Virus record (IMG/VR): IMGVR_UViG_3300037258_000301
Span: 1-64,000 of that record
Strand: one strand, 5' to 3'
DNA from: a virus
DNA length: 64,000 nt
Shown here piece by piece: positions 10,252-40,951 of this stretch. The number at the start of each line of letters is the position of its first letter. The stretch's first letter is position 1. The notes beneath the pieces are model-generated. The model was not told where the DNA came from, ran no database searches, and saw only the letters and a program-made list of their open reading frames with translations. A program made the translations under genes and the position numbers.

Positions 10252-10586
10252 ACGATGCTCACCCCGGTGGCATGCCGAACATCGGCGGGCCGCCGGGGCT
10301 GGGTCAGCAGGTGCACCGCTACGCCCCGCTGGCCGAAGCCACGCTTCAGCTCGTGGTGGACGCGATCGACGAACTCGCGCACGCTCAGCCGGGTCATATG
10401 GCGGTCGTGGTGACCACCCTGCCGGCTCAGGAGGGGCAGCGCATGCAGTCCCGCCGGGTGAAGGGTTCCTACCACGTGCTGGCTTATGCCGTGTGGTCCA
10501 CCGGTGATATCACGCCGATCATCTGGGGTGATCTCGGCCCCCTCACCATCCCGGCCAATATTCCTCAGGATTGGACATTGATATGA
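10248..10586 (+). CDS. hypothetical protein
   Basis: ATGA overlap. Confidence 0.7.
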   Translation: MNDAHPGGMPNIGGPPGLGQQVHRYAPLAEATLQLVVDAIDELAHAQPGHMAVVVTTLPAQEGQRMQSRRVKGSYHVLAYAVWSTGDITPIIWGDLGPLTIPANIPQDWTLI

Positions 10587-10777
10587 GCACACTGGGTTCG
10601 ATCAGCACGCGGTACATCGATCAGCTGCGGCGCGCCGCTGAGGTAACGGATAGTCCTGAGCATCGCGAGTGGTTCACCACGGTTGCTGATGATCTGGAAG
10701 CGCGGCGTCCGGTGCGCAACCTTGATGAGGTCATGCGGTTCGTCAAGGAGAATCAGGAGGGTTCGACTCCCTCCTGA
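10583..10777 (+). CDS. hypothetical protein
   Basis: ATGA overlap. Confidence 0.65.
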   Translation: MSTLGSISTRYIDQLRRAAEVTDSPEHREWFTTVADDLEARRPVRNLDEVMRFVKENQEGSTPS

Positions 10778-10781
10778 TCCA
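10750..10781 (+). ncRNA. tRNA minihelix-like hairpin (acceptor-like stem stacked on T-arm)
   Basis: GAATCAG-GAGGG-TTCGACT-CCCTC-CTGATCC-A. Confidence 0.45.
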
Positions 10782-10857
10782 CAGAGTGACCACCATCCGG
10801 TCAACCCGGACTGGGGTTGGCGCTCTTGCGGTTGCCAGATCCCTCAAGCTGGATGGA

Positions 10858-10924
10858 GTGCTGTAGCTCAACGGCAGAGCGAGGACCGCAAGTCCACACG
10901 TCAGGTTCGACTCCTGACCAGCAC
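10858..10924 (+). tRNA. atypical tRNA-like element, GCA (Cys) at anticodon position
   Basis: GTGCTG/CAGCAC acceptor, TAGCTCAACGGCAGAGC D-arm, TCAGG-TTCGACT-CCTGA T-arm; short anticodon arm, no U33, no encoded CCA. Confidence 0.6.
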
Positions 10925-11039
10925 GCGGGCACGGGATTAGCCTTCCCTACGGATGTGAGCCCTCCAATCCGGTAACAGGTAGGTGAGTCTGATCAGCTCA
11001 TCGGTTTTCGATGGAACGTTGCCGGGTTGTTAGGCCCGC
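10925..11039 (+). ncRNA. putative multi-branch structured RNA
   Basis: GCGGGC/GCCCGC outer stem enclosing GGATT/AATCC, TAACA/TGTTA, GGTGAG/CTCATC. Confidence 0.4.
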
Positions 11040-35165: not shown

Positions 35166-36119
35166 ATGACCTTCATGTTGGACTGCTCGCACTATCAGGG
35201 CACCATCAACTGGCCGCAGGTCAAGGCCGCCGGTTGCGTGGGCGTCATGGTGAAGACCACTGACGGTGCCACCGGGGTCGACGCGAACTGGCAGATCAAC
35301 CATGCCGGCGCTCAGAGCGTGGGTCTCCCGGTATCCCCCTATCACTTCTCTGAAGACGGTAACCCCGCCACCGAGGCCGCGCACTTCGCTTCGATCTGGT
35401 CGGCGGGATGGGACTTTCGACCGTGGCTGGATGAGGAGAAGACGACCGCCAACGCGGCATTCATCCGGACATTCCGCAGTACCTGGCGAGGGATCACGAA
35501 CTACCCCCTGTTCGGGGTATACAGCTCCGAGAACCTCCTCACCGGCCGGCTGGCCCCCTCTGGCTGGATCGACCCGCAGACCGGTATCTGGGCCGCGCGT
35601 TACGCCCCCTCGCTTGGCTGGGACGAGGACCAGCTGCTCATCTGGCAGTTCTCCTCGGCCGCGACCATCCCCGGGGTTCTGGGGCATGTGGACGAGTCCG
35701 AGTTCATGCACGGGTGGGCACCCGGTACTGACGGTGCTCTTCTGGCCCCGACCACCAGCACGGAGGAAGACATGATCCAGACCTTCAGTTTCGATCCCAC
35801 CTACGCCGCCGGTGCCACCCCGACCAGCGCCCGGCACGTCTTCGGCACCGAGACCAACTCCATGTCGCAGGTCGCCAACCAGTCCTGGATCTGGGTGAAG
35901 TCCGGCTGGGGCTCGATGGACGCGGTGCACATCATCGCCATCGGGGACGCGCCGGCCGGTAGTGCTACCGCGCGGTATCTGGCTGATCAGACCTGGACCT
36001 CGATCGCTGGGGACGCCGGTCGCTGCTTGATGGTCGCGCCGGATGGCACCGACCAGTACTCTGTCGAGGTCACCTCCAGTGCTCCCTACACCGTCACGAT
36101 CGCGGTCAAGAGCAAGTAA
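35166..36119 (+). CDS. endolysin, GH25 muramidase with C-terminal beta-rich domain
   Basis: LDCSHYQG.INW, VKTTDG, YHF, LDEE, IWAARY, IWQFSS, VD. Confidence 0.9.
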   Translation: MTFMLDCSHYQGTINWPQVKAAGCVGVMVKTTDGATGVDANWQINHAGAQSVGLPVSPYHFSEDGNPATEAAHFASIWSAGWDFRPWLDEEKTTANAAFIRTFRSTWRGITNYPLFGVYSSENLLTGRLAPSGWIDPQTGIWAARYAPSLGWDEDQLLIWQFSSAATIPGVLGHVDESEFMHGWAPGTDGALLAPTTSTEEDMIQTFSFDPTYAAGATPTSARHVFGTETNSMSQVANQSWIWVKSGWGSMDAVHIIAIGDAPAGSATARYLADQTWTSIAGDAGRCLMVAPDGTDQYSVEVTSSAPYTVTIAVKSK

Positions 36120-36790: not shown

Positions 36791-37024
36791 ATGGGAACTA
36801 CGACGATCCAGACGAAGCCCTGTCCTGAGTGCGGTCGAGCAGCTCAAGAGCTGTCCGTGCCTGACGACGCCGCGTTGCGGTACTACAACGGCGCGACGAT
36901 CCAGAGTGCCTTTCCGATGCTCTCGGCCGACGAGCGCGAGCTACTCATCAGCGGCCTACACAGCGAGTGCTGGGAGAGGCTGATGGCGCTCTATGACGAA
37001 GAGCTGGTCGGGGAGGAGACATGA
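36791..37024 (+). CDS. small Zn-binding phage protein
   Basis: AAGGAGG RBS; CPEC...IQ.AFP.LS...RE.LISG.H..CW. Confidence 0.75.
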   Translation: MGTTTIQTKPCPECGRAAQELSVPDDAALRYYNGATIQSAFPMLSADERELLISGLHSECWERLMALYDEELVGEET

Positions 37025-37181
37025 GTCGCACCCACAGCGTCCCCTTCACCATCAACAACGAACGCGTCGGCACCGCAGTGGTCGTGGAGCGGGATGACTT
37101 GCCGAGAACCATTCCTATCCCACCGGAGTCGCCCTTGATCCAGTAGGATGTACTCACGGGTTCACGTCAGAACCCGTTCAA

Positions 37182-37322
37182 CCCCCAGGGGCTCCAGGGG
37201 CCCGCCCGGCAAAGTCTGCTTCTTAGGACGATCACGCGTAGAGCCCAACGGCTCCGCCTGATTCGTCCGGGAGTTGGTGACGCGACAAGGCAGATGATGA
37301 GGTTCAAATCCTCACTGGGGGA
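37182..37322 (+). ncRNA. 141-nt tRNA-like RNA with extended central arm
   Basis: CCCCCAG/CTGGGGG 7-bp acceptor, TGAGG-TTCAAAT-CCTCA T-arm, D-like hairpin; followed by terminator. Confidence 0.65.
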
Positions 37323-37327
37323 CGAGC

Positions 37328-37370
37328 ACAGCCCCGGTACGAATCCCGTACCGGGGCTGTTTGCTGTTTG
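37328..37370 (+). terminator. intrinsic terminator
   Basis: ACAGCCCCGGTACG-AATCC-CGTACCGGGGCTGT then T-rich tail. Confidence 0.85.
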
Positions 37371-37615
37371 GCGGACGTCGAGTGCGCCGCTCACCCGGTG
37401 CGATCGACCACCGAGCGTATCGATACCCCAGCCTTGTCAGTAACGCGCGACACTGGAAGTACGCGGTGCGCCGGCCGGAGTGTCGACCCTCACCTCCGGC
37501 CGGAGCCCGCAATCAAGGTATGAGAGATGAGATCAGCTTGCGCGATCCAGGGGATCATGCGTTACTGTCCTCTCCGTCACCAACCCCCAGTCACCGGGCC
37601 GCACCCGGAGGAGCG

Positions 37616-39287: not shown

Positions 39288-40951
39288 CCCAGCTTTTGAT
39301 CGGGAGGCCGATATTCATGCCGACGGACCGCGACGCGCAACAACTGCTCCATGAGGCCGCGAACGCGCCCAGCCTGGCCGAGGCCCGCCGTTTGGTCGGC
39401 GAGGCCGAGCTGGTGAAGACCGCGCTCGTCCACAAGGCCACTCAGGATCGCGAGGTGGATCTGGCTCAGGCGATCGTGCGCGATCATCTGACGCCGGTCT
39501 CCGTGTTCGAGCATCACACCGCAGCGACCGACTGGCTCGGCGAGATCGATACGACACCGCCGGAGGACATGGATCATCAGATCCTCGCCCAGGCCAGCCT
39601 CTGGTACGGCAACGTGCATCCCGAGGTGAAGTCCTTCCCTTCCGAGTTCGCCGAACAGGCACGGGGGAAGGCCCACAAACTCGCCGGCGCCTACGGACCC
39701 TCGGCGGACGCGGCCGAGGAACTGTTCCTGGGACATGTCGCTGCCTGTCATGCGCGCGAGGTCAAGGCCGGTGTCGTCAAGCTCGCCGTTGAGGCTCCCA
39801 CCGCGCCGGACACTTCCCCGATGCCCTCGGGCTCGGCGTATGAGGGTCTGCCCGAGAACATCACCACTTCTGAGCGTGCCCCCGCCATCCAGGCCCTGGA
39901 GCAGAACAACGGCGCCGGTGGCGCGACCGACGTGGTGCCCATCAACGATCCCGGCCTGGGCGCGGCCGATACCCAGGTGGACCGCACCAACAACGACCTC
40001 GGTGACCAGTCCGTCGCCGATCTCACCAGTCAGGTGGACCGCACCTCGACGGCGAGCCGGCATGTCGCAACGAAGGGAATCCCCACCATGCAGCACGCGC
40101 AGTGCCCGACGTGCGGAGGCCACGGCCGGGTTGCCGTGCGCGTGGCCCCGCAGCCAACCATCGTCGACATCGTTCGGATGGGCGTTTCGGGTCTGGACCA
40201 GGTCGATCAGATCGTCGACCCACACGACAACGGCCCCGACACCAACCCGGCTCCGGGACAGGCCGAGACCTACCCCACCGACGTGGCGTTCCCGTGGACG
40301 ATGAGCCCGGCCAACGTCCAGCAGACCATCAGTGAGAACCAGCAGCAGCTCGCCGAGCGGGAGCAGCGCAAGGGCGCCTCCCTGGAACGCACCGCACGCA
40401 AGGAGGGCAACGCCGCCTACCGCGCGTTCGTCGAGCACAACATGAAGCGGCTGGACCCTGGCAAGAACTTCGACCCGCAGCACCGGCACGTCACGCTGCA
40501 CCAGGCCGCGACCCAGTTCGCGTTGAAGGCGTATGCCGTCGTCAAGCGGGCCGGCACCGACGACTCCGGTTGGATCGGTGACATGGGTGCCGGCGGCTAC
40601 TCCACCGGCGAGCAGGACTGGAACGAGTCCGCCATGTCCGGCGCGAACAACCTTCAGACCCCGGACCCGGTCTATGGCTGGGGCGGTGACAACCCCTCAC
40701 AGCCACTCAAGCCCTACGGCGCTGATGAGGCCGACGACGCCACCAACAACCCGGATGAGTGGGCGCCGGGGCAGCCGACCCAGATGGACATGGGTGGGCG
40801 TGGCCAGGCCACCAATGGTGCCCCGGCGCCCGGCTTCCCGAACGCACCAATGAGCCATGGTGCTTCCGTGGACAGCGATCCGAAGCTTCAGGAGCTGCTG
40901 GCCCTGGCTCGTCGGCGTCGAGCGTTCCTGGAGAGCAAGCAGAACGCCTGA
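39284..40951 (+). CDS. head-region protein (probable virion/internal protein)
   Basis: 555 aa, low-complexity segments, CPTCGGHG, first gene of late block. Confidence 0.7.
   Translation: MTQLLIGRPIFMPTDRDAQQLLHEAANAPSLAEARRLVGEAELVKTALVHKATQDREVDLAQAIVRDHLTPVSVFEHHTAATDWLGEIDTTPPEDMDHQILAQASLWYGNVHPEVKSFPSEFAEQARGKAHKLAGAYGPSADAAEELFLGHVAACHAREVKAGVVKLAVEAPTAPDTSPMPSGSAYEGLPENITTSERAPAIQALEQNNGAGGATDVVPINDPGLGAADTQVDRTNNDLGDQSVADLTSQVDRTSTASRHVATKGIPTMQHAQCPTCGGHGRVAVRVAPQPTIVDIVRMGVSGLDQVDQIVDPHDNGPDTNPAPGQAETYPTDVAFPWTMSPANVQQTISENQQQLAEREQRKGASLERTARKEGNAAYRAFVEHNMKRLDPGKNFDPQHRHVTLHQAATQFALKAYAVVKRAGTDDSGWIGDMGAGGYSTGEQDWNESAMSGANNLQTPDPVYGWGGDNPSQPLKPYGADEADDATNNPDEWAPGQPTQMDMGGRGQATNGAPAPGFPNAPMSHGASVDSDPKLQELLALARRRRAFLESKQNA

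Follow-up and report, generated by a model that had tools for sequence, protein, structure and literature searches.

Many non-decoding RNAs with the shape of transfer RNA (tRNA) occur in phages, and to our knowledge a function is known for none of them, including RNA C of phage T4. RNA C (species 1 RNA) was sequenced decades ago. A study of T4 from 2022 still gave its function as unknown (PMC9697503). The YrlA RNAs of actinobacteria and actinophages are non-decoding tRNA mimics of ~110-150 nucleotides (nt); they carry a GNCGAA motif and are encoded at most ~4 kilobases (kb) from a Ro60/TROVE gene on the same strand (PMC4201824). The YrlA of M. smegmatis has an acceptor-like stem of 7 base pairs (bp) and in vivo is both cleaved by RNase P and extended by CCA (PMC4201824). 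In this work, we analysed a tRNA-shaped element of 141 nt at 37182-37322 on the + strand of the phage record IMGVR_UViG_3300037258_000301, which is 151,624 bp long, has a G+C content of 63% and is estimated to be complete; the window, that is, the whole stretch of DNA under analysis, is its first 64 kb (64,000 nt). We propose with moderate confidence, at about an even chance, that the element may be a phage gene for a functional, processed and trans-acting non-decoding tRNA mimic, or tRNA-derived small RNA. The first-pass annotation of this DNA, made from the letters alone, had called it a novel tRNA-like non-coding RNA. This holds for the sequence, which appears to be an orphan with no relatives in the collections searched, but not for the kind, which is already known from T4 RNA C and YrlA. 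The element is thus a variant of the phage tRNA mimics, known in kind and new in sequence.

Architecture of the element

The element and the two structures that flank it are made up as follows, where element position 1 is window position 37182.

37156-37177, + strand: hairpin of 8 bp (ACGGGTTC / GAACCCGT) with a 6-nt loop, from the sequence and the fold of 37147-37380
37182-37322, + strand: whole tRNA-shaped element, 141 nt, a four-way junction (acceptor, first hairpin, long arm, T arm) plus discriminator A
37182-37188 (element 1-7), + strand: 5' acceptor strand CCCCCAG, pair probability 0.99-1.0
37189-37203 (element 8-22), + strand: first hairpin, which stands where a tRNA has its D arm, stem of 6 bp and loop of 3 nt, pair probability 0.92-0.99
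37204-37214, + strand: purine-rich linker GCCCGGCAAAG, 11 nt, read from the sequence; the tRNA counterpart is the single nucleotide 26
37215-37294, + strand: long arm, in the anticodon-arm position, 80 nt, probability of the closing helix 0.68
37226-37268 (element 45-87), + strand: interrupted hairpin of 17 bp with a CAAC loop, probability 0.94-1.0 and one pair at 0.5
37298-37314 (element 117-133), + strand: T arm TGAGG-TTCAAAT-CCTCA, 5 bp, with the equivalent of G53-C61 and a canonical T loop
37315-37322, + strand: 3' acceptor strand CTGGGGG and discriminator A (37322, A141), read from the sequence
37328-37370, + strand: intrinsic terminator, G+C-rich stem of 13-14 bp with a loop of 5-7 nt (stem region 37328-37360) and T-rich tail TTGCTGTTTG

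The acceptor is formed by pairing of 37182-37188 with 37315-37321 (element 134-140), and its first pair is C1-G72. The helix that closes the long arm, TCTGC/GCAGA, joins 37215-37219 to 37290-37294 (element 34-38 to 109-113), and a junction of 3 nt lies between this arm and the T arm. All three tRNA-type stems, namely the acceptor (7/7 Watson-Crick pairs), the closing helix (5/5) and the T stem (5/5), are free of mismatches, and CCA is absent from the encoded 3' end. The element folds with a minimum free energy of -66.6 kcal/mol (z = -3.4, 200 shuffles). In the thermodynamic ensemble, the acceptor, the first hairpin and the T arm have pair probabilities of 0.72-1.0 and the closing helix 0.68. 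The 8-bp hairpin at 37156-37177, which has no U tract, starts 10 nt past the stop of the open reading frame (ORF) at 37021-37146 and ends 4 nt before the element, and the terminator begins 5 nt past the discriminator.

The acceptor, the canonical T arm, the preceding 8-bp hairpin and the strong terminator directly behind the element are all present as the first-pass annotation had described them. Its D-like hairpin GGGC/GCCC is also there and is longer than drawn, since these are only the outer 4 bp of the first hairpin, which abuts the acceptor without the spacer of tRNA positions 8-9. The arm between this hairpin and the T arm had been drawn as one helix with interruptions. All three of its complementarities do occur in the sequence and the outermost is the closing helix, but CGCGT/ACGCG and CCAAC/GTTGG have a pair probability of 0.00 in the ensemble, because they are outcompeted by the 17-bp hairpin. 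Instead of one interrupted helix, the long arm is thus an asymmetric, branched structure; in it, TTCTTA follows the 5' closing strand, and the 3' segment of 21 nt (37269-37289) is weakly structured.

A G+C-rich, structured terminator region might contain a T-arm-like hairpin and a complementary 7-mer by accident, and this was evaluated in genomes simulated at the size and composition of this phage, with the acceptor and the T arm at a spacing of 40-200 nt. The acceptor and T arm alone are expected 0.27-0.37 times per simulated genome and are not significant by themselves, and one such chance-like match was also seen in ~370 kb of related loci. On the other hand, the expectation falls to 0.047 per genome, with placement not counted, once a 5-bp closing helix in the cloverleaf position is included. 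Strong terminator-like hairpins number only five on the + strand and two on the - strand of the 151-kb genome, so that over both strands (303 kb) there are only 7 stretches of 10 nt that lie just upstream of such a hairpin. For one of these hairpins, the distance from the end of the element is 5 nt. The joint expectation under the chance null is then ~1e-5. Moreover, the element is in sense orientation in a non-coding gap, at the extreme end of the + strand lysis operon. The closing helix, the placement before the terminator and the sense-strand, non-coding position together disfavour chance as an account of the combination; we regard it as very unlikely, and the element is treated here as a real tRNA-type transcription unit.

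Proposed maturation and action

We hypothesize that read-through of the upstream operon, or a promoter that was not recognised, would provide the transcript of the element. The main determinant of RNase P cleavage is the minihelix of acceptor and T arm. For this reason, host RNase P would be expected to cut before C1, and the precedent is M. smegmatis YrlA (PMC4201824). The 3' trailer and the terminator would be trimmed back to the discriminator, and CCA would be added by a host enzyme, because none is encoded. The product would be a stable RNA of ~144 nt that is tRNA-like at its acceptor/T end and bears a branched arm of 80 nt at the site of the anticodon arm. Its action may be in trans, through the occupation of a host factor by which the acceptor/T half of tRNA is recognised; our guesses for this factor include a synthetase, a modification enzyme and a defence nuclease directed at tRNA.

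A more specific form of this proposal, to which we give a rather small chance, is a free-standing, CCA-tailed mimic with a proline-type acceptor end that is made late in infection to titrate or mislead such a factor. Examples of such a target would be prolyl-tRNA synthetase (ProRS) and a defence nuclease or toxin that cleaves tRNA, and the 80-nt arm would serve as a second binding surface. Bacterial ProRS has C1-G72 together with A73 as its acceptor identity set, and among the 40 tRNAs of the closest relative of this phage the combination is found in tRNA-Pro only. If this decoy is real, the element would be an unpermuted, Ro60-independent counterpart of the Y-RNA-like mimics in related phages.

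Comparison with RNA family models

ARAGORN reported nothing on the element either by default or with introns of 0-200 nt allowed. A tRNA-Thr call was obtained with -ps80 only; it requires a 54-nt "intron" at position 26-27, which is implausible, and it was rejected. Rfam 15 gave no match at the gathering score in the window and, at E <= 10 in 36900-37600, none to tRNA (RF00005), transfer-messenger RNA (tmRNA), YrlA or any ribozyme. The YrlA model RF02553 also had no match at E <= 10 in the whole phage, and the same model finds units in the relatives. The element thus lies outside tRNA, tmRNA and YrlA, as the first-pass annotation had placed it. Its acceptor is made by its own 5' and 3' ends and its long arm is closed, which agrees with the view that it is not permuted like YrlA; neither a YrlA model match, nor permuted order, nor a nearby Ro60 gene was found for it.

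By comparing the parts of a tRNA, the acceptor/T module is complete, with a 7-bp acceptor on a 5-bp T stem, the T-loop consensus and a discriminator. An anticodon arm (5-bp stem, 7-nt loop, U33 and anticodon) is not present and the 80-nt arm stands there instead, and a D arm (positions 8-9, stem of 3-4 bp, loop of 7-11 nt, G18-G19) is not present either. The GG in the 11-nt linker could, judging by its sequence, be a substitute for G18-G19 of the D loop. The element is non-decoding, as it has no anticodon arm accepted by any tRNA model. Furthermore, every single-segment deletion of the element was passed to ARAGORN, and 26 of the 1,414 derivatives gave scattered calls of 11 identities, none of them consistent and none Lys. 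The element is therefore not a tRNA with a simple intron, which the earlier annotation had also held against itself as a possibility.

A phage attachment site (attP) with a copy of the 3' end of a host tRNA was considered and rejected, as no tyrosine or serine recombinase was found in the phage. The 21-nt T-arm/acceptor word had a single chance match in 185,579 GTDB species genomes, at a site where no tRNA is called.

Genomic setting and tRNA content

The gene order on the + strand is a sugar-modification cluster, a GH25 endolysin, several small genes, the gap that holds the element, and the next gene.

35166-36119, + strand: GH25 endolysin (muramidase), the lysis gene upstream of the element
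37021-37146, + strand: ORF of 41 codons, the last small gene before the gap
from ~37616, + strand: start of the next gene, downstream of the gap

The GH25 muramidase points to a bacterium as the host of the phage. The gap between the 41-codon ORF and the next gene is 469 nt and non-coding. Codon-position G+C signal is absent from it on both strands, and the overlapping ORFs at 37148-37261 (+), 37167-37394 (-) and 37294-37443 (+), which do not have this signal, were rejected as coding. The same 469 nt were left empty by an independent gene call on a Logan contig of 67,168 bp from a second public data set (SRR11832711), which holds the same phage with identical upstream protein and gene spacing; a protein search with the upstream gene found this phage only, on that 67-kb contig. 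Between the terminator and the next gene, ~245 nt of non-coding DNA (37371-37615) has no recognised promoter, RNA family or repeat, and presumably serves the next operon as promoter and leader. The nearest phages among those compared share ~45% amino-acid identity in the conserved downstream genes. In the closest relative the gap is not conserved, and another gene directly precedes the homologue of the following gene.

The tRNA load differs strongly within this phage group. The closest relative, G001 (the record of locus L003; 13.1-31.7 kb compared with G000), has 40 tRNA genes and the present phage about one. The gene next after the element has a homologue in G001, and a Trp/Asn/Asp/Asp tRNA cluster is located there 2.8 kb upstream of it. 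In the present phage, only one tRNA is plausible, a tRNA-Cys(GCA) of 69 nt at 10858-10926, with a shortened acceptor, a very short variable region and an RF00005 score of 25.9 bits, below the gathering score of 29. Next to it, ARAGORN calls a "tRNA-Ile(GAT)" of 93 nt at 10690-10782. Its acceptor contains mismatches, its D stem has 3 bp and its anticodon stem is poor, and the call overlaps with the last part of an ORF of 68 codons (10571-10777). Rfam sees at 10750-10781 a 32-nt acceptor/T-arm minihelix only (mascRNA model, 19.2 bits); the stretch 10690-10782 is probably not a functioning tRNA but a relic of one or a mini-tRNA. Canonical T-arm motifs number three in the 151 kb, in the element, in the tRNA-Cys gene and in the minihelix next to it, and with so few a mini-tRNA punctuation system of this genome was rejected.

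Homologue searches and Y-RNA-like arrays in related phages

No homologue was found among the GenBank phages by megablast and blastn, nor in the IMG/VR viral contigs by three pattern scans, one of which was built on a spurious ORF. The 23 related IMG/VR loci gave none by nhmmer, blastn-short or a structural descriptor, and a single-sequence covariance model of the element gave none on the related loci and 23 whole related records. The best matches of this model, in L082 and L084, have a word of 16 nt in common with the element, but they fall within an ORF of over 1,000 codons and are hence due to chance. The T-arm word was met at 22 loci in metagenomes, all of them coding sequence or unrelated odd tRNAs. 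The structural descriptor returned ordinary tRNAs only on four whole related genomes, and no similarity was seen between the element and the 44 tRNAs of the relatives.

Five more distant relatives encode Rsr (Ro60), and four of them (L007, L010, L011 and L015) have tandem YrlA-like arrays beside it. The gene at 39317-40951 has a homologue in these four, and the arrays are found ~2 kb upstream of it, on the opposite strand. Because of these arrays, non-decoding tRNA mimics are part of the repertoire of this phage group, at a similar relative position. The arrays (L015:5300-6130, L007:5800-6400, and ~5900-6500 in L010 and L011, all on the - strand) contain 4-5 Y-RNA-like units each. The array and the rsr gene (Ro60/TROVE, ~560-640 amino acids) share a strand; the array comes first and is closed by a terminator immediately ahead of rsr. 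Some units have a full permuted tRNA module with T arm, closed acceptor and D arm, which stays below the threshold of RF02553 with up to 39.5 bits, and others have a T arm only. Each unit begins with the word CGATGCG(A/T)AG...GG(G/A)TTACTTC, which recurs as CGATGCG(A/T)AG...GGTTACTTC. YrlA of phages is already known (PMC4201824), and arrays of 4-5 units may deserve a separate look. Homology of the element to a 144-nt, unpermuted-looking unit of the L015 array was rejected, as the alignment score was reached by 60 of 500 shuffles.

Alternative explanations

Several points weigh against a functional, trans-acting mimic. The searches of metagenomes, GTDB genomes, GenBank phages, IMG/VR and related phages found no homologue of the element, and no promoter of its own was recognised. 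As for partner proteins, TROVE/Ro60, RtcB, a CCA enzyme, SmpB and Rnl2 were not found in the 151-kb phage; Rnl1 also gave no match, in a search without a working control. The D-arm region is unlike tRNA, as it lacks the 8-9 spacer and has a loop of only 3 nt and a linker of 11 nt, and an L-shaped fold of the element is therefore putative. Moreover, relatives have up to 40 tRNAs and this phage about one, so tRNA loss is under way in this lineage, and this keeps alive the idea that the element is a tRNA gene in decay. On this view it would be left over from tRNA arrays such as the relatives have, with anticodon and D regions overwritten by insertion and drift, and it may still be transcribed and processed with no function. 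The Trp/Asn/Asp/Asp cluster of G001 near the corresponding gene, the sub-threshold tRNA-Cys and the mismatched "tRNA-Ile" with its minihelix as all that the phage retains, and the singleton status of the element are consistent with such decay, and TCTGC-TTCTTA...GCAGA resembles an anticodon stem with half of a Lys(CUU) loop, split by ~63 nt. However, scattered mismatches of the type seen in the "tRNA-Ile" at 10690-10782 would be expected in a relic, and the three stems of the element are perfect. The deletion scan restored no consistent tRNA, the insert is itself a very stable and well-formed hairpin, none of the 44 tRNAs of the relatives resembles the element, and useless DNA is usually shed by phage genomes. 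We consider decay unlikely, though a relic deserves more weight than any other alternative discussed here. A smaller chance is given to an action in cis, in which the tRNA shape would be a processing signal of the "t-element" or mascRNA type that recruits RNase P to cut the transcript of the lysis operon. The upstream messenger RNA would then end in the hairpin at 37156-37177 and be shielded from 3' exonucleases, with the RNA that is set free as a by-product. The principle of tRNA-like 3' processing is established for MALAT1/mascRNA and for plant mitochondrial t-elements, and the position of the 8-bp hairpin, right after the last ORF of the operon and 4 nt before the predicted RNase P site, would suit it, as would the lack of a recognised separate promoter. 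But a minihelix of ~35 nt would suffice for this purpose, which leaves the 80-nt arm unexplained, the strong terminator 5 nt downstream already gives a protected 3' end, and with three T arms in 151 kb there is no genome-wide system of such signals.

The remaining alternatives assign the element to a described class of RNA. As an unpermuted counterpart of YrlA it would be a Y-RNA-like partner of the host Ro60 (Rsr), with the Ro-binding site in the long arm. The presence of Rsr in five relatives and the similar relative position of the four arrays point in this direction, and the arm contains GGACGAUCACGCGUAG, which is loosely like GNCGAA (PMC4201824) and like the CGAUGCGUAG word repeated in the arrays. 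The motif match is, however, inexact and on the wrong strand for a simple permutation. Neither a TROVE gene nor, by tblastn, an Rsr remnant was found in the 151-kb phage, which has no YrlA match at E <= 10 either, and the alignment with the L015 unit does not exceed shuffled sequence; we give this partnership very little probability. Even slimmer is the chance of an intron-containing tRNA-Lys(CUU), in which splicing would remove ~63 nt behind position 37 and leave a decoding tRNA. TCTGC / TTCTTA...G / GCAGA can be read as anticodon stem, U33, anticodon CUU and A37. But the ARAGORN intron mode was negative, removal of the insert yields no tRNA, the D arm does not follow the canonical pattern, and 3 nt would be left for the variable region. 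Furthermore, 63 nt is below the size of a group I intron and matches no ribozyme or intron family, the GH25 endolysin points to a bacterial host, and RtcB and Rnl2 were not found in the phage. Equally improbable is a mini-tmRNA, that is, a tmRNA-like tRNA domain in which the long helix mimics P2 and which would act as a decoy towards SmpB or the A site of the ribosome. The topology does resemble the tRNA-like domain of tmRNA, with a D region that is degenerate and a long helix that takes the place of the anticodon stem. Alanyl-tRNA synthetase requires G-U at position 3-70, and the element has C-G there; ARAGORN and the Rfam tmRNA model (RF00023) find no match, a tag reading frame is absent, and SmpB was not found in the phage.

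A trans-acting, non-decoding tRNA mimic thus remains our preferred explanation. As a singleton from a metagenomic phage, the element is a case of limited value and a modest lead rather than a discovery. It is nevertheless a clean unpermuted case, with a perfect acceptor/T module, a large foreign arm and its own terminator, and is suited to tests of processing and of host partners. Both ARAGORN and Rfam skip it, which shows what standard annotation misses.

Comparison with known systems

The likeness to a canonical tRNA consists in the 7-bp acceptor, the 5-bp T stem, the TTCAAAT loop, the discriminator, the cloverleaf connectivity and a terminator right behind. The element differs in its length of 141 nt, in the 80-nt branched arm with no usable anticodon loop where tRNA has an anticodon arm of 17 nt, in the non-canonical D region and in the lack of an RF00005 match at E <= 10. 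With the tRNA-like domain of tmRNA it shares the acceptor/T-arm module, the degenerate D region and a long helix at the place of the anticodon stem, whereas G3-U70, the tag ORF, the pseudoknots and a match to the tmRNA model are all missing. The mascRNA and the t-elements are likewise tRNA-like structures at the 3' end of a transcript, possible recruiters of RNase P, with a stabilising structure upstream of the cut; they are, however, ~40-60 nt long and eukaryotic or organellar, and the element has 141 nt and its own terminator.

T4 RNA C (rnaC; NC_000866 70908-71046; L049:1909-2047 (-)) is 139 nt long, and its fold has z = -4.6. It contains long hairpins and a canonical T arm, CCGGG-TTCGAAT-CCCGG, 9 nt from the 3' end, and its terminal stem is an imperfect one of 7 bp (CGAUUCG/CGUUUCG) with two U-U mismatches. 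Rfam does not call it a tRNA and gives only a weak match to tRNA-Sec of 17.5 bits. Both RNAs are phage-encoded small RNAs of nearly the same length (139 and 141 nt), stable in the case of T4, in which a canonical T arm stands right before the 3' strand that pairs with the 5' end, with long hairpins in between. On the other hand, they have no sequence similarity, RNA C sits in a tRNA gene cluster, and its terminal stem is imperfect whereas that of the element is perfect. The order of the arms also differs, with a long hairpin and then a second hairpin in T4, and a short hairpin and then the long branched arm here.

YrlA is circularly permuted, with a closed acceptor and an open long stem, and has a good D arm, whereas the element is unpermuted and has none; YrlA also adjoins rsr on the same strand, and the phage of the element has no Ro60 gene. 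After the RNase P cut, however, M. smegmatis YrlA has an open acceptor end and a long stem, as the element has. By comparing all these systems, T4 RNA C is the closest to the element in build, and YrlA is the closest in biology.

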